This document shows positions 32,269 to 53,639 of a DNA stretch of 64,000 nt, piece by piece (within the stretch, counting starts at the first letter, position 1; every line of letters begins with the position of its first letter). Both the position numbers and the translations under genes were made by a program. The notes beneath the pieces were generated by a model. The model had not been told where the DNA came from and did no database searches. It was given only the letters and a program-made list of their open reading frames with translations. Origin of the DNA: Dictyostelium discoideum (lineage: Eukaryota); NCBI GenBank assembly GCA_000004695.1, contig CM000153.2, positions 4,448,001-4,512,000 of the forward strand. The letters run 5' to 3'.

Positions 32269-34353
32269 TCAATTGTTAACAATGAATTCATTATAAGCTA
32301 TAATTTCAAAAGTTCTTGGACCTTGTGGTAAATAAGGGAATGTAATATTGAACCCTTTTGGAATTGGACCAGTTGCAGTTAAACTCTTTTTGATTTGAAA
32401 TTGTTCATTAATAGTTATAATTGATTTTGCCCAATTCTTTGGATTGTCTAATGTGAATGATGATGTAAAGAAACCAAGATTGTTACCATTTAAAAACAAT
32501 GATTTGGTAACATTGTCATAGGATAAATTAAATTCAAGGTTTGTACAATTTTGTAAATTATTAATATCTAAATTTGTAAATTTATTTCCACTAAAGATAG
32601 CACTAGTCGATGGTTGCAAATAATTACAAACAACACATGATGGTGCTTGACCACCAATTAAATTATTACTAATGTCAAAATCAATTGAACACCAAGTTTC
32701 ATCGATTTGTCCAGTTAATAAATTATCACTAAGATATAAAGAAATATCTTTTGAAAATAAATTTGATGGGAAACTTGTTGGAATAATACCACCCATTTTG
32801 TTATTTCTTAAATAAAGGATACTTAGTTTTTTATTGAATAAATTGAAATTTATTTCATTAAAGTTACCATTTTCAAACTTGCTATAATTGGGTTTTTTTT
32901 TTTTTTGATATAAAAAAAAAAAGATATTAAAAAATGTCCACTGAAATTGAATTTTTAAAGGTTAAATACTTACAAAAAGGTTAATGTTGATGGTAAAGCA
33001 GAGAATGGGAATTCACCATTTACATTGAAAATATTTCCTGCATTTGGAATATATCTTTTTTTTTTTTTTTTTCCAAAAGTTATTAATTAGTAAAAAATTA
33101 TCTGGATCGAAAGTAATGATCGAGGACTACTTACATAGAAACATCTAAACTTTCATTATAGTTGGATAAATCAATAAGGCCAAGTGGAGTGTCAATTTGG
33201 TAATTAATAGCACTATTTTTATAATTAAATTAAATTAGAATAAAGATAAGTATCAATATTATAATTTTTTAAAAAACTTACAAGCCAGTGTTTTTATTAG
33301 TACTAATTGGAATTGAAGCCAATGCCACTGGGAATGGGTAAACAACAGAATTTGATGATGTTAAAGAGAATGAAGTTACATTTGCATATGTTGAAAAAGC
33401 AGAGAATGAGTTTGAATCTGTGCCCGGTAAAAGGGTAAGTTGTCTATTGTTTTTATTATAAATAATTAGTAAATATTAATTATTGTATTGTATAAAAAAA
33501 CAAAAAAAAAAAAGAAAAACATACAATAATTCCATTAGAATATTATTCATTGATGGGATGAAATGGGTGTATGCAAAGAAGTATTCAAATGATGTCGACG
33601 TTTCAAGTAAATCATTGATATAATTGATTTTATATTTTGGATTTAAAGTTTGGGTGATGAGAGAAAACTTTTTAACATTTAAAAGACTTGAGAAATAAAT
33701 GTTTAATGGGCCAGAAAGATAAACCTTTGTACTTAAAACTGGAATTGTAATTGATTTCCCAACACCAATATCAACATCAAATATCGAAGAATTACCATTA
33801 ATTAAAGAAATCGATTTTAATGATTGAGGGAATAATCCAATTAAAAAGTTTTTAGAAACTTTGAATCCATCGATATTTCTAAAGAGAGATTTTAAATATT
33901 AATTTTGTTAGTATATATATATATATATATATAATTTTTTTTATTCTAATTTTAATATCTTACAATGTATTAATTGATGAAAAGCATTGAAAATCAGATG
34001 GTGAAATTAAATTTTTATTTGTTTGGGTCGCTCTAATATTTACAACATTTTGTGCATCACAATTAACCAAAGCATTCATAGGAGTTAATGGTGAATTACA
34101 AAAGTCGTAAAGAAGAGTGTTTGAATTATAATAAAATTCCTGGTTGACATTAGAAATTTTATTAAAGAAATTGAAAGTACATTGATCTGTAAAATTTAAA
34201 TTTAAGAATAAAAATTAGATAAAAAAAAAAAAAAAAAAAATTAAAATAAAATAAAATTAAATACTTACATTCTGATGAAGAAAGGGAAAATACATCCCCA
34301 ATAAAAAATAACAGAACTGACAAAACAATAGAGAAAAGTTTGACTAAATTCAT
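32269..34353 (-). CDS. Family member B of the LRR receptor-like family: an intact 531-codon ORF encoding signal peptide plus LRRs only (no EGF/TM part). Exons on the minus strand: 34269..34353, 33964..34186, 33525..33878, 33282..33443, 33135..33212, 32974..33054, 32269..32881.
   Basis: MNLVKLFSIVLSVLLFFIGDVFSLSSSE|YQCTFNFFNKISNVNQ…QCFSSINTL|LNIDGFKVSKNFLIGLFPQSLKSISLINGNSSIFDV…|LQLTLLPGTDSNSF…|FAINYQIDTPLGLIDLSNYNESLDVSM|IYIPNAGNIFNVNGEFPFSALPSTLTFL|FKFENGNFNEINF…LTGQIDETWCSIDFDISNNLIGGQAPSCVVCNY…GPIPKGFNITFPYLPQGPRTFEIIAYNEFIVNN*. Exon sizes and phases (85/223/354/162/78/81) parallel the full-length paralogs. The ORF stops exactly where the paralogs continue …ITAYNEFIPQIDSVIRY…. Confidence 0.65.
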
Positions 34354-34556
34354 TTTTTTTTTTTTTTTTTTTTTTTTACTCAATAAATGAAATAAAAAAC
34401 TTTAAGAACAAAAAACAGAAAAAAAAAATTTTCAAAAAAAATAGAAAAAAAAAAAAAAAAAAAAAATACCCTTTATTTCGGAATAAAAAAAAAAAATTCA
34501 AGAAAAAATTTTAAAGAGACGAACCATCTAATCTCTCAAAAGGAATGAAAACATTT

Positions 34557-50300: not shown

Positions 50301-50779
50301 TATTATTATTATTATTATTATTATTATTATTAATATTTTATATTAACATACATTTTATTTAAAGCTGAATAACATTGAAAATGGTCAGGTGATAATAAAT
50401 TTGTTTTATTTTTATGTGTTGCTCTTATATGTCTAACCGTTCTAGAAGTTTCATTGCAATCAATCGAAAAATCGATTGGATAAATCGGGATACCACAAAA
50501 ATTATATCCATTGAATGAACTATCTATTCGATATTCAATAGATGCTTGTGATATTATATTTAATAGATTTATTGTACAATTATCTAAAAATAATAATAAT
50601 AATAATATTTTTTAAAAATACAATACATAAGTTAATATTAAAAAAATGATGATAATTACAATAAATAAATGAATGAATAAAAATAAAATACTACATTCTG
50701 ATTCAGTGAGTGGGTTTTGTGAATTTATTATTTTAATTGAAAATATAAATAATAAAAGTAAAATTAATATTCCTCTCAT
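47367..50779 (-). CDS. Near-identical tandem duplicate of the 43401..46850 gene (about 97% nucleotide identity). Exons on the minus strand: 50695..50779, 50352..50583, 49865..50233, 49609..49774, 49462..49542, 49317..49397, 47367..49164. Exon 4 carries an A6 run where the sister copy has A5, which shifts the frame, so this may be a pseudogene or a homopolymer sequencing error.
   Basis: Same exon architecture and splice signals as 43401..46850. The 3' exon ORF (598 aa) is intact and differs from the sister copy by a few substitutions and small Ser/Gly-run indels. Exon 5 carries a 9-nt insertion (DDDLVEG versus DDSA). In exon 4, …aataaaaaatactggtttGTAAGT (P6) versus …aataaaaatactggtttGTAAGT (P5), so translation would run …INKKYWF then out of phase into a stop in exon 5. 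Confidence 0.6.
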
Positions 50780-53639
50780 GATTTTAAATATTTCTTTAAT
50801 TGCATTTATCTAACATATTTTTTGTTTTAAAGTTTTTTTTTTCTTTTCTTTTTCTTTTTTTTTTTTATTGAACCATTTAAAATATTAATAAAATTGATAA
50901 GTGGGTGTTTTTGGTAAAAAAAAAAATAAAATAAAAAAAATAAAAATAAAATAAAATTAAAAAAAAAAAATAAAAGTTTTGGGAATTTAAAGGCAAAATC
51001 AATATTAATTGCCATTTTATTTTATTTTTTTTTTTTTTTAAGGAAGTATTTCATAAAAATGGTAAGGAAAATTACTTTTATTTTTTATTTTTTAAAAATT
51101 ATATATTCCACCATAAATTTCTTCTTTTTATTTGATTATTATTTTTTTTAATTTTTTTTTTCAACTTTTTTTTTTCAATTTTTTTTTTTAACTTTTTTTT
51201 TTCAACTTTAATATTACATTGATACTGGTGCTTTTATATTAATTATAAAATGATTTGAAACTAATTACAATGAAAACAATACCATAGAAACCTAAATAAA
51301 CAAAGTGATGTCAGTCAATATTGGTTTGTTTTACTTTCAAATAACACTTAAAAATTCAAATAATCCCATAACCCAGTAGTAGCAAAAATATCAGCAACAA
51401 CATCACCATCATCATTTTCGGTAATATTGAAAAACTAAACTCATCAACACCAATTATTTAATTTTATCACATCATTAAACCACCACCATCACAATCTTCA
51501 AACCCAACAATTCATCACCAAATTAGGTGTTACAATAATGAGTAATATTTCTCACAAGTCACTGTTTATATCGTCAAATAATGTTTTAATTTTTATTTTA
51601 ATTTTATATTTAAATTTATTTTATATATTTAGATTTTATTAATTAAAAAAAAAAGTTTAAACAGAAAAAAAAAAAAAAAAAAAAAAAAAAAAAAAAAACA
51701 AAAAATTCTTTCTCTTTTTTTTTATTTATTTCTTTATGTATTATCAGATTTAAAAAAAATTGTGTTTAAATAAATTTTTTTTTTTTTTAATTTTTATTTA
51801 TACACCAACACAAAGATTAAAAAAAAATAATAAAAAATAAAAAACATTTCAAGATCAATTTTATACAACAGGATTTTTCAACCATTTTATTTGTTAATTA
51901 TTTTTTATTTTTTTTTATTTTTTTGTTTATTTTTTTTTTTTTTTTTTTTTTGTTTTTTGGTTCCAACTTTTATATATTTTTTTATTTATTTATTTATTTA
52001 TTTTTTCTTTAAAAAAGTATAAAAACAAGTAAAAATAAAAAAAAAATGTTAATTTAGAGAAAACAAGAAAGAAAAAAAAAGGAGAAACTTTAATACATCG
52101 AGATTTTTCAATATAATTATTTCTAAAAAGTTTTTTTTTTTTTTTTTATAGATTAATTTAATTTTTTAGAAATTATATTGTAACAAAAACATTACTATTT
52201 ATAGATAATAAACTAAAAATAAACATTAATATTATTATTATAATTATTTTTCTATTAATAAAATTATTGTTATTATATTTATTGATATGATCATAGAATT
52301 TAACCAATTCGTTAAAAATACACATTGTCCAATTAATTTAACCTCTTAACCTTCATTATAATGTCCAATTTGTTTTTTTTTTTGTTTTTTTTTTTAATTT
52401 AACACCATTAATTATCTAGTGATATCTTTTTTATGTATAAAAAAGTCACATTTCATCATCATCGTCATTTTCGTCATCAATACTGTTTTTGTATAAATAA
52501 AAAAAAAAAAAAAAAAAAAAAAAAAAAAAAAAAATCTTTTAATAATCAAAAATCACTTTTTGACACATTAACCACCCCCACACCACCATAACACAAACGA
52601 TCCCCACCATGTCGATATTAATAAGACACCACACTTTTTTTTAAAAAAAACAATAAAATAACAATCAAAAAATTTTATTTAAAAAACCCCCTCAATGAAA
52701 AATGGTAAATACTCATTAGATAAGAGTGGATAGTGAACAGATACTGAGTAATAAATATATATATTATATACATATGTATAAGACTTTTATTTTATTTATT
52801 AAACTAAAAAAAATACATACACACACACAAAAAAAAAAAAAAAAAAAAAAAAACTTATTTCCATTTTTATATGATAGGGGGTTTTTTTAAAAATTTGTGT
52901 GTGAAAACAAATCAAGTTATATTCTTGTGTTTGTATGTTTAATTAATTCTTTTCCATTGTAGAGTAATAGATTTAGAGGGGAAATTATTTTATTATTATT
53001 AATATTTATGGTTGTTCTTTGTGTGCACTATTTTTTTTTTTTTTTTTTTTTTTTTTTTTTATATTTATTATTATTATTATTATTTTATATATATACCTAC
53101 CACCCACTCCTCTAACTTTATTATAAAAAAATAATTTATAAAAAATAAATTAAAAATTAAATTAAAATAATATAAAATTTTATTTTATAAAATAAAAAAT
53201 AATTATGGTAGCTATTCAGAATATTATTAATAAGTTTTTTTCATCATCAGCATCATCAAATCAAATCAAATCACTTAAATTCACATTTAAATTTTTATAA
53301 TAATTTAATATATTTTCAATTTTTATTTTTAACTATTTTTTAAAAAGAAATAATTTGTTAATTAAAATTAAAAAATTGGTTTTTTTTTTTTTTTTTTTTT
53401 TTTTTTTTTTTTAGTTACTGATCCTATAATTTAATTATACATTTTTTAAAGTATTTATTAATTTATAATAAATAATAATACTACTAATAATTATTTTAAT
53501 CAAAAAAAAATAATAAAAAATAATAAAAAAATAAAAACTATTCAAAATATTAAAAATATAAATATTAATCAAAAACATTTTTTTATTTGTTTATTTTTTT
53601 TTTATTTTTTTCGTTGCTTAAAAAAATAATAATAATAAT

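Follow-up and report, generated by a model that had tools for sequence, protein, structure and literature searches.

A tandem array of ComC-like genes adjoins mhcA on chromosome 4 of Dictyostelium discoideum and probably encodes surface proteins that evolve by duplication, conversion and loss, with communication or adhesion as their likeliest role. In the window, i.e., the whole stretch of 64,000 nucleotides that was analyzed, we built explicit spliced models for five head-to-tail paralogous units on the minus strand at 32269..50779, confirming the five consecutive paralogs of the preliminary description. The features of the locus, together with unit G, are as follows.

9761..13981, minus strand: unit G, a gene of a different ComC-like subfamily with at least 9 exons, a ComC_SSD and another intron layout.
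32269..34353, minus strand: unit F, an intact 531-codon secreted form (AX4 DDB_G0286431, under-modelled there at 472 aa); exons 34353-34269, 34186-33964, 33878-33525, 33443-33282, 33212-33135, 33054-32974 and 32881-32269.
34511..38110, minus strand: unit E, an E-type pseudogene (AX4 DDB_G0286435, which models a 386-aa remnant).
About 37310-37775: lesion of E, insertion of ~430 bp in exon 2.
Near 36539: lesion of E, loss of 4 nt.
Near 35992: lesion of E, stop codon.
35853-35900: lesion of E, deletion of ~170 nt.
Exon 7 of E: several deletions of 1 to 2 nt.
38599..39313: inverted repeat of 229 nt in the D-E intergenic spacer, with 94% complementary arms at 38599-38827 and 39085-39313.
39639..43127, minus strand: unit D, an open 939-codon frame in 7 exons (spliced model); exons 43127-43031, 42939-42711, 42511-42122, 42018-41854, 41765-41688, 41604-41524 and 41418-39639.
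43401..46850, minus strand: unit C, an intact 925-codon gene (ACTFIT KAM9942019.1; exons mapped against P0001); exons 46850-46766, 46612-46381, 46263-45895, 45788-45624, 45507-45436, 45333-45253 and 45174-43401.
47367..50779, minus strand: unit A, an intact 936-codon ComC-like gene (AX4 DDB_G0286437; ACTFIT KAM9942018.1); exons 50779-50695, 50583-50352, 50233-49865, 49774-49610, 49543-49463, 49388-49308 and 49164-47367.
43398..50966, minus strand: tandem duplication giving A and C, delimited by self-matches (units ~50966-47358 and 47051-43398).

The seven exons of A, C, D and F were joined into one open reading frame apiece, with intron 1 in phase 1, introns 2 to 6 in phase 2, and GT-AG borders throughout except for the intron-1 donor of D. 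The seven-exon layout had been attributed to six copies; it is common to the five array units but does not extend to G. Exon 1 encodes a signal peptide, which ends as described in NSQNxLxESE in A, C, D and E but in SLSSSE in F, and the Cys-rich cap ascribed to exon 2 is borne out by conserved cysteines. A GTAACT donor said to be shared by the LRR exons was found only at intron 6 of A, C and D; F has GTAAGT there. As proposed, the large last exon encodes the LRR end, beta-sandwich/TIG domains, EGF-like repeats, Asn/Ser-rich linkers, one transmembrane (TM) helix and a short basic tail.

Although the genes had been regarded as not assignable to a named group, they belong to the catalogued ComC-like family (Pfam PF24141 LRR_ComC, PF24143 for the second beta-sandwich, and PF22933 ComC_SSD), as identified by LRR_ComC, TIG and ComC beta-sandwich matches. 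The domain search suggested earlier gave LRR_ComC scores of 55.6 bits for C, 51 bits for A and 45.2 bits for F (cutoff, 27 bits) and TIG scores of 26.1 bits for C and 26.7 bits for A (cutoff, 20.9 bits), whereas the EGF_TEN match fell below its cutoff, as did the LRR_ComC score of the D type. As predicted from sequence, each full-length unit encodes a type-I membrane glycoprotein. The signal peptide is followed by an irregular LRR solenoid of ~14 repeats with a Cys cap, a pair of beta-sandwich/TIG domains and 3 to 4 EGF-like repeats; then come a second TIG-like domain and a stalk rich in Ser/Asn, and the chain ends with a single TM helix and a 16- to 30-residue basic tail that has no recognizable domain. 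An AlphaFold2 model of unit C had pLDDT values of 80 to 94 in the LRR, ~80 in the sandwiches and the second TIG and <50 in the EGF region, and placed the TM helix at 875-899. The best Foldseek matches in the PDB were BRL3/BRI1/MIK2, internalin A, LGR4/5, TLRs and the IPT domains of plexin/MET. Pfam, AlphaFold2 and Foldseek thus agree with the LRR/TIG/EGF/TM type-I architecture initially put forward.

A search of 1.84 billion representatives gave just 84 relatives at E ≤ 1e-3. All 10 that were looked up are from group-4 Dictyostelium, with no relative outside this group among those 10 of 84. Published work places comC in group 4 only and describes EGF domains, a signal peptide and a TM segment for it (PMC4931340); a comC mutant aggregates aberrantly (PMC2873529). 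AX4 already has annotations for A, E and F; nothing was found in a literature search under the DDB_G identifiers of the array units. The array genes are further members of the ComC-like family, almost unstudied so far. The proteins resemble ComC and ComC-like proteins, to which they were likened by Pfam profile, in having an N-terminal LRR above the LRR_ComC threshold, then beta-sandwich/TIG domains and EGF-like repeats, as well as a signal peptide, one TM helix and relatives found only in group 4. In contrast to ComC, however, A to F lack the supersandwich domain (ComC_SSD), and F also lacks the EGF repeats and the TM helix. Because that domain is absent, the function of A to F may differ from that of ComC.

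Unit A had been described as carrying a frameshift. None is present: the only stop of its 936-codon model is terminal, its introns are canonical GT-AG, and annotated proteins agree with it (935 of 937 aligned positions match P0052, and 920 of 937 match P0051). It is the same protein as ACTFIT KAM9942018.1 and AX4 DDB_G0286437, save for gene-model differences. Unit C is intact, as proposed. The start codons of A and C lie 3929 bp apart, and among the assemblies compared their duplication was seen only in the window/ACTFIT lineage; in ACTFIW and ACTFIR, the interval from the prefoldin gene to the D type contains a single C-type gene. A is a derived, recent duplicate of the C type, and C is the conservative copy. 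Since the duplication, the A branch has acquired 52 nonsynonymous and 10 synonymous changes and the C branch 11 and 3, so that A is changing ~4.5 times faster. The dN/dS of the A branch, ~1.3, does not differ significantly from neutrality (P = 0.29) and is compatible with relaxed constraint as well as with adaptation. Eight of the 12 changed LRR codons of A fall in predicted beta-strands (P = 0.0045, in a post hoc test).

Unit D, which contains a 38-residue poly-Asn tract inside its second TIG-like domain, had been called a splice-donor variant. Its intron-1 donor indeed reads GC in the window (gcatgc, at 43030-43029), but this is doubtful, as the donor is GT in six other genomes (ACTFIT, 99.8% identical; ACTFIW; ACTFIR; D. 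citrinum; ACTFIY; D. dimigraforme). The window and ACTFIT differ by 14 substitutions over 23 kb, nine of which, mostly T to G or C, cluster within 42564..43225. Given this clustering, the GC donor may be a sequence-quality artifact of the source of the window rather than biology. Both arms of the inverted repeat at 38599..39313 match the mis-modelled C terminus of P0005, the D-type protein of ACTFIR.

The description of E as a decayed pseudogene is supported by at least 8 disabling lesions relative to its ACTFIW ortholog (L002 19062..22415), which encodes an intact 933-aa protein; P0031 maps onto unit E at ~100% identity. Unit F comprises the signal peptide, Cys cap, LRR solenoid, C-cap and first beta-sandwich, and stops just past the latter; its model lacks both EGF repeats and a TM helix. 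It is thus the secreted form that had been called LRR-only, with one sandwich retained. The same truncated form is found in ACTFIW, ACTFIR, ACTFIY, ACTFIZ, D. citrinum and D. dimigraforme, that is, in at least six genomes.

In contrast to these units, G cannot be counted as a sixth copy of the same layout. A single exon encodes both its signal peptide and its Cys cap, the equivalent of exon 3 is divided in two, and an additional phase-1 intron interrupts the counterpart of exon 7. Like ComC, it has the supersandwich domain (ComC_SSD, 92 bits), and it matches EGF_2 at 54 bits. Two lesions break its frame: an 8-bp deletion near 10225 and an A7 run near 9940 that precedes the TM exon. The deletion is absent from the D. 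citrinum ortholog P0035 and from Logan contigs; in ACTFIT, the sequence of G is the same as in the window. The "full range of states" attributed to the copies was overstated: C is intact, E decayed and F secreted as stated, but A has no frameshift and the donor variant of D is doubtful.

Comparison with other assemblies showed that the locus is neither invariant nor single-copy, with 3 to 5 syntenic copies across seven assemblies. Four types are kept in the order C-D-E-F across six other assemblies. The E type is intact in ACTFIW, decayed in the window lineage, lost in ACTFIY and damaged in ACTFIR. The array gains, exchanges and loses copies between strains. The proposed birth-and-death pattern is therefore supported by the variable copy number, the A/C duplication and the loss of E, but turnover is modest because the four types are old and their order is fixed across species. 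Relative to ACTFIW, exons are 92 to 95% identical and introns 75 to 87%, and exon indels are multiples of 3. The coding sequences of A, C and F are identical in the window and ACTFIT.

In keeping with the fast evolution that had been claimed, the proteins evolve faster than those of neighboring genes: ortholog dN/dS ranges from 0.22 to 0.48 overall (C, 0.37; D, 0.25; F, 0.47), compared with 0.00 to 0.12 in well-sampled flanking genes (uricase, 0.04; kinase exon, 0.00; PI3/4-kinase, 0.12). By domain, dN/dS is 0.04 to 0.09 in the EGF region, 0.09 to 0.18 in the second TIG and ~1 in the N-cap and in portions of the LRR, with small counts per domain. For no whole unit was dN/dS significantly above 1. 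In exon 7, A, C, D and E are mutually 94 to 100% identical over nt 590-930, and, in the window as in ACTFIW, D and E are 98 to 100% identical to each other over nt 810-1400. Over nt 708-810, the window paralogs are 94 to 96% alike, whereas C is only 87% identical to its own ortholog. These sequences indicate concerted evolution of the TIG/EGF block alongside divergence of the LRR head.

Occasional duplication adds copies to the array, such as A from the C type, gene conversion holds the TIG/EGF block nearly identical among the paralogs of one genome, and loss removes copies, as with the decayed E and the frame-broken G in the window. The array products may be ligand-binding surface or adhesion proteins whose LRR head would bind an extracellular ligand, kept off the membrane by the TIG/EGF stalk. 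As the tail lacks a catalytic domain, signaling or adhesion would require partner proteins. By homology with ComC, the likeliest role would be cell-cell communication or adhesion in aggregation and development, with F as a possible soluble competitor or co-factor.

The array proteins could conceivably sense pathogens or prey. As receptors for bacteria in prey sensing, phagocytosis or defense, they would track microbial ligands with the LRR head, and F would be opsonin-like or a decoy. The LRR ectodomain resembles the folds of plant LRR-RKs, TLRs and internalins, the N-cap and LRR segments have dN/dS values near 1 above a constrained stalk, copy number differs among genomes, and the A-branch changes concentrate on predicted beta-strands. 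The best structural matches to the solenoid are the ectodomains of plant LRR receptor-like proteins and kinases (BRI1/BRL3/MIK2). The short, kinase-less tail of the array proteins, read here from sequence, resembles that of plant RLPs, which are likewise type-I surface proteins, and plant LRR arrays are also tandem and shaped by duplication, gene conversion and pseudogenization. However, the array proteins differ from these plant proteins by the absence of a kinase, irregular repeat lengths and the presence of a TIG/EGF stalk, and with identities of just 12 to 17% and TM-scores of at most 0.25 the likeness should be read as analogy rather than as demonstrated homology. The matches in fold are generic (TM-scores of 0.1 to 0.25), no whole unit has a dN/dS significantly above 1, and the phenotype of ComC, the sole studied relative, concerns communication in development rather than feeding. 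Moreover, the one-to-one conservation of four types across species argues against rapid arms-race turnover. We thus regard a role in bacterial recognition as unlikely.

A reading of the units as remnants without function, left by a lineage-specific expansion in decay and with frames still open by chance, is much harder to sustain. It would account for the pseudogenes E and G, the A-branch dN/dS, the possibly broken donor of D in the window and the loss or damage of the E type in ACTFIY and ACTFIR. Yet A, C, D and F keep frames of 530 to 940 codons and their splice sites, as do their orthologs in several species, under an ortholog dN/dS of 0.2 to 0.5 overall and <0.1 in the EGF region, with exon indels in multiples of three and a truncated F form that is itself conserved. 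Least probable, and already disfavored, is a role in kin recognition or allorecognition like that of tgrB1/tgrC1, with polymorphic surface proteins that would let strains sort during aggregation. TgrB1 and TgrC1 are also group-4-specific type-I surface proteins with IPT/TIG domains and clustered genes, and ComC is reportedly linked genetically to lagC/lagD, from work by Kibler et al. in 2003. Tgr genes are reported to be hyperpolymorphic, whereas the array units diverge at background synonymous rates: ortholog dS is 0.08 to 0.10, compared with 0.03 to 0.16 in flanking genes, so there is no sign of tgr-like hypervariability, nor of excess or ancient polymorphism. In addition, ACTFIW and ACTFIR orthologs have a dN of just 0.004 to 0.012, the window and ACTFIT share the A, C and F coding sequences, and an LRR head with one or two TIG domains is unlike the Tgr ectodomain, which has many TIG repeats and no LRR head.

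Among the closest known relatives of this probable communication or adhesion array is a second chromosome-4 cluster of the same subfamily (AX4 DDB_G0286211, DDB_G0286217 and DDB_G0286329, with orthologs). These separate paralogs, outside the window and also uncharacterized, share the architecture and the motifs SEYxC (in the cap), PSCxxCHYL and NITFPxLPQG..., and are 43 to 50% identical to unit C.

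The annotated protein P0001 mapped exactly to unit C of the array (43401..46850). We transferred its exon boundaries to the other units and inspected every junction. Units A, C, D and F each proved to be one open reading frame (ORF) in seven exons:

50779..47367, minus strand, unit A, 936 codons
46850..43401, minus strand, unit C, 925 codons
43127..39639, minus strand, unit D, 939 codons
34353..32269, minus strand, unit F, 531 codons

The introns of these units are in phase 1 at intron 1 and in phase 2 at introns 2 to 6. Exon 1 encodes the signal peptide, with NSQNxLxESE at its end in A, C, D and E. 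Relative to a divergent strain, exons are 92-95 % identical and introns 75-87 %, and indels are multiples of three in exons but not in introns, a contrast that supports the gene models. The SEYxC motif is conserved across the exon 1/2 junction, which favors a GTAGTA donor over the one chosen in the AX4 models and in those of ACTFIT, the assembly near-identical to the window; the latter donor yields ESECNNC, against the family-wide ESEYNC. The GTAACT donor that a preliminary description had ascribed to all leucine-rich repeat (LRR) exons was seen at intron 6 alone, and only in A, C and D. The frameshift reported in A (47367..50779) does not exist: A encodes the same protein as KAM9942018.1 of ACTFIT and DDB_G0286437 / Q54LS4 of AX4.

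The window is AT-rich. On its plus strand, a single ORF of 2116 codons at 3077..9427 encodes myosin II heavy chain, and we take it from its sequence to be mhcA; its GC content (0.33-0.39) is above that of the surrounding DNA. The presence of mhcA assigns the window to D. discoideum chromosome 4. Identity to ACTFIT (CM142510.1, GCA_054883475.1, ACTFIT_ locus tags) is 99.77 % across 23.4 kb and 99.82 % over a further 15.4 kb. The AX4 proteins DDB_G0286431, DDB_G0286435 and DDB_G0286437, which represent units F, E and A, show ~100 % identity on the window, and the ACTFIT proteins match equally; unlike for A, E and F, no AX4 protein was recovered for unit C or D. These identities show that the window stems from AX4 or from a strain nearly identical to it. 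The public gene models for 32269..34353, 43401..46850 and 47367..50779 look wrong in places. AX4 DDB_G0286437 removes 45 in-frame nucleotides of unit A as a spurious intron, and DDB_G0286431 (472 aa) leaves out exon 5 and part of exon 7 of unit F. The annotation of ACTFIR, a further Dictyostelium assembly, merges the E and F types in one 1250-aa protein.

Unit D had been described as a splice-donor variant. Its GC donor is indeed present in the window, but the position reads GT in ACTFIT and in five other genomes. The window and ACTFIT differ by 14 substitutions over 23 kb, 9 of them within 42564..43225 (660 bp; D promoter, exon 1 and intron 1). The clustered changes, the GT-to-GC donor among them, are mostly T to G or C beside a G. 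Judging from this pattern, the cluster may be a low-quality stretch of the source assembly or a local mutation cluster, and it is doubtful that the GC donor is a genuine variant. Unit D also carries 38 Asn codons in a row (about 39900..40020), which form part of a loop in its second TIG-like domain. Its orthologues read ...SSKNNNNKNNNNNY... at this site, indicating a coding microsatellite expansion specific to the window lineage.

The encoded family, previously left without a named group, is covered by Pfam families named after ComC. LRR_ComC (PF24141, cutoff 27) matched the N-terminal ~300 residues of C, A and F (55.6, 51.0 and 45.2 bits, respectively). The D-type orthologue P0053 gave no hit to LRR_ComC in the Pfam search; it aligned across the whole domain, with 49-55 % identity to C, F and E. 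A TIG domain match was above the Pfam threshold. Beta-sand_ComC_2nd (PF24143) scored 20-22 bits in C, under its cutoff of 27 and overlapping a TIG match, and 30.2 bits, over the cutoff, in the F-type orthologue P0026. Cys-rich CxC repeats are readable in the EGF-like region, where the teneurin-type EGF model EGF_TEN reached 32.6 bits (E = 8e-8), short of the cutoff of 65 of that long model. The cytoplasmic tails are basic, 16-30 residues long and devoid of Pfam matches. Unit F has been regarded as an LRR-only secreted form, and it has neither EGF repeats nor a transmembrane (TM) helix; because it ends directly after the first sandwich (...TFEIIAYNEFIVNN*), its product is predicted to be secreted.

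P0001 was modelled with AlphaFold2 from a 30-sequence alignment (mean pLDDT 71.6). The model predicts a ~350-residue LRR solenoid of about 14 strands with good confidence (pLDDT 80-94), beta-sandwiches at residues 450-630 and a second beta-sandwich at residues 740-830, with a poorly resolved EGF region. A hydrophobic N-terminal helix (2-20) and a TM helix (875-899) are also predicted. The top Foldseek matches in the PDB were the BRL3, BRI1 and MIK2 ectodomains, internalin A, LGR4/5, TLRs and plexin/MET IPT regions, at TM-scores so low (0.1-0.25) that the similarity is generic, at the level of the fold.

The supersandwich domain ComC_SSD (PF22933) was detected in the distal unit G (92.4 bits). 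It had no match in C or F at E <= 0.1, nor in A (protein P0052) or P0053 at E <= 1. Thus, units A to F, which lack this domain of ComC proper, represent an SSD-less sub-family, and G alone belongs to the SSD-bearing group. Like the LRR_ComC clade, the units have an LRR domain, EGF-like repeats, a signal peptide and a single TM segment, except for F, which is without EGF and TM. They differ from TgrB1/C1, whose ectodomain has multiple IPT/TIG domains and no LRR, whereas the array proteins combine an LRR solenoid with one or two TIG-like domains. They also differ from LRR receptor kinases and Toll-like receptors, as no kinase or TIR domain is found in their tails.

An F-type profile, run exhaustively with HMMER against 1.84 billion representative proteins, gave only 84 matches at E <= 1e-3, 36 of them at E <= 1e-10. 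The lower-ranked matches align to short stretches of the profile only and are probably generic LRR proteins. Ten full-length matches that we looked up came from strains of the D. discoideum complex, D. citrinum, D. firmibasis or D. purpureum and were labelled "hypothetical" or "EGF-like domain-containing"; the sequence relatives that we found were from Dictyostelium in every case. A word-indexed profile search with the LRR-region alignment returned nine proteins and missed the known ACTFIT D-type protein, showing that a protein it does not list may exist all the same. The restriction of the relatives to Dictyostelium agrees with that of comC, which codes for a signal- and TM-containing protein with EGF domains, to group 4 (Glöckner et al. 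2016, PMC4931340). Mutation of comC causes aberrant aggregation, and comC is the one gene of the group with a known role in intercellular communication at this stage (PMC2873529 Table 1). Literature searches with DDB_G0286431/35/37, neighbouring identifiers and comC with lagC found nothing about the array genes, and nothing pertinent came up for Dictyostelium receptors with LRR, TIG and EGF domains. The primary papers on comC are those of Kibler et al. from 2003 (Dev Biol 259:193 and 264:506).

We extracted the syntenic locus from six other assemblies, bounded by the prefoldin gene on one side and the MCU, Ste20-like kinase and uricase genes on the other, and assigned each unit a type from its LRR region.

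Units at the syntenic locus, by assembly
Window and ACTFIT: A and C (both C type), D, E (pseudogene), F
ACTFIW: C, D, E (intact), F
ACTFIR: C, D, E (probably damaged), F
D. citrinum: extra upstream unit x1, then C, D, E, F
"cf. discoideum" ACTFIY: C, D, EGF fragment, F
D. dimigraforme: at least D, E, F

The fixed order C-D-E-F across assemblies implies that the four types are older than these species. The loci compared hold 3 to 5 units. Among these assemblies, the window lineage alone shows the duplication into A and C, whose start codons lie 3929 bp from each other; the E type was lost more than once. F is without EGF repeats and TM helix in every genome examined. ACTFIW and ACTFIR, both labelled D. 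discoideum, are 91-93 % identical to the window over the whole region including the flanks, showing that the 91 % identity of P0002 to C is background divergence rather than locus-specific polymorphism. This 7-9 % DNA difference, which extends to the housekeeping flanks (dS about 0.08-0.15), is high for a single species and may denote cryptic lineages.

The decay of unit E into a pseudogene is borne out by the ACTFIW orthologue, which is intact, encodes 933 aa and has canonical splice sites. E has suffered a ~430-bp insertion in exon 2 (about 37310..37775) that is missing in that orthologue, a 4-nt deletion in exon 4, a deletion of ~170 nt, several deletions of 1-2 nt, and premature stops. The AX4 model DDB_G0286435 translates part of the insertion. 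One 27-nt stretch of it occurs once in the window, with no second copy, and a plasmid collection yielded no match. A tRNA-targeted retroelement as the source of insertions was set aside, as the window contains no tRNA genes.

The distal unit G (9761..13981) was first taken for a sixth copy with the shared seven-exon layout, but both its exon layout and its domain content differ. Its signal peptide and Cys cap share one exon, the exon-3 equivalent is split, and there is an additional phase-1 intron between PVCYSC and Y. The frame is broken twice, by an 8-bp deletion near 10225 and at an A7 run before the TM exon. The deletion is present in the window and ACTFIT; genomic Logan contigs from five or more SRA runs (SRR26869257, SRR26869268 and SRR28564540-42) lack it, and the D. 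citrinum orthologue stays in frame across the site. These sequences suggest that a loss-of-function allele of the ComC_SSD gene is segregating.

Evolutionary rates were determined by the Nei-Gojobori method with a custom script.

dN/dS of array units and flanking genes
C, window vs ACTFIW: 0.37
D, window vs ACTFIW: 0.25
F, window vs ACTFIW: 0.47
Flanking uricase: 0.04
Flanking kinase exon: 0.00
Flanking PI3/4-kinase: 0.12
Flanking unnamed ORF: 0.09

Orthologue dS is about 0.079-0.115 for array units (0.08-0.10 for C, D and F between the window and ACTFIW), against 0.03-0.16 for flanking genes, and dN between ACTFIW and ACTFIR orthologues is 0.004-0.012. The EGF region (dN/dS 0.04-0.09) and the second TIG domain (0.09-0.18) are constrained; values near 1, from small counts, were found in the N-cap, parts of the LRR and the C-cap/sandwich. 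No whole-unit dN/dS significantly exceeds 1, and positive selection acting on entire genes was therefore rejected. Among paralogues, a comparison the preliminary description had proposed, A and C differ by dN 0.037 and dS 0.034, and the coding sequences of both are unchanged between the window and ACTFIT. Polarised with two outgroups, the A/C changes are strongly asymmetric, with 52 non-synonymous and 10 synonymous on the A branch and 11 and 3 on the C branch; the dN/dS of the A branch, about 1.3, is indistinguishable from neutrality. Predicted strands account for 27 % of the solenoid and contain 8 of the 12 LRR codons changed on the A branch (post hoc test, p = 0.0045).

In a sliding comparison, A, C, D and E share 94-100 % identity across nt 590-930 of exon 7 (first TIG domain), and nt 810-1400 (EGF region) are 98-100 % identical between D and E in the window and, independently, in ACTFIW. 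At nt 708-810, the window paralogues are 94-96 % alike, whereas C and its own orthologue share 87 %. This pattern indicates that, within a genome, gene conversion homogenizes the stalk. Between types, identity is 45-80 % in the LRR head and in the C-terminal part. Unit A contains a short D/E-type tract (...SGGIVNNNKEIN...).

We conclude that this is an old four-type array of a ComC-like sub-family without the supersandwich domain, and that it displays recent duplication, conversion and decay. Nothing in it points to an unusual mechanism. Its products would be ligand-binding surface proteins and one secreted form, and would act via partner proteins. By analogy with ComC, a role in cell-cell communication or adhesion is most plausible; a role in sensing bacteria is a less likely candidate. 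That the units have no function at all is disfavoured by the conservation of the reading frames and of the truncated F form and by purifying selection on the stalk. An allorecognition locus is disfavoured as well: synonymous divergence is at background level, the types are conserved, and the extreme allelic polymorphism above background that characterizes Tgr was not seen in the few genomes compared. We regard as rather unlikely a broader reading, in which the array and its sister cluster would form a group-4-specific recognition system with four long-lived LRR "specificities" on a conversion-homogenized stalk, F would be a secreted LRR-only partner or decoy, and new specificities would arise by duplication and fast change of the LRR beta-face, as in unit A; such a receptor/decoy system for bacterial or conspecific ligands would have originated independently of plant RLPs and animal TLRs/VLRs.

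Few surface receptors of social amoebae are known besides cAMP receptors and Tgr proteins, and an LRR-headed family confined to group 4 and akin to comC is a reasonable source of new cell-cell or cell-bacterium recognition molecules. The ~19 kb locus is a compact, well-resolved case of duplication, domain-restricted gene conversion and pseudogenisation together, and reveals mis-modelled genes in current annotations. The gene predictions (AX4 DDB_G0286431/35/37; ACTFIT_005390, 005391 and others) and the Pfam domains under the ComC name were already known; new are the corrections to the gene models, the division of the array into types, the variation in copy number from genome to genome and the domain-restricted gene conversion.

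The genes flanking the array (14400..31000 and 51300..64000) are of ordinary appearance and include:

16134..16595, P450 fragment
18916..20184, KTI12
25628..26491, uricase
28464..30255, Ste20-like kinase with a PDCD10_N domain
MCU gene, on the same side of the array as the Ste20-like kinase and uricase
about 55000..55700, prefoldin gene
58469..61321, PI3/PI4-kinase
WD40 gene, within 14400..31000 or 51300..64000

The D-E spacer contains a 229-nt inverted repeat with 94 % complementary arms (38599..38827 and 39085..39313) 257 nt apart. In the ACTFIR D-type model P0005, residues 851-891 are a bogus last exon taken from this repeat.
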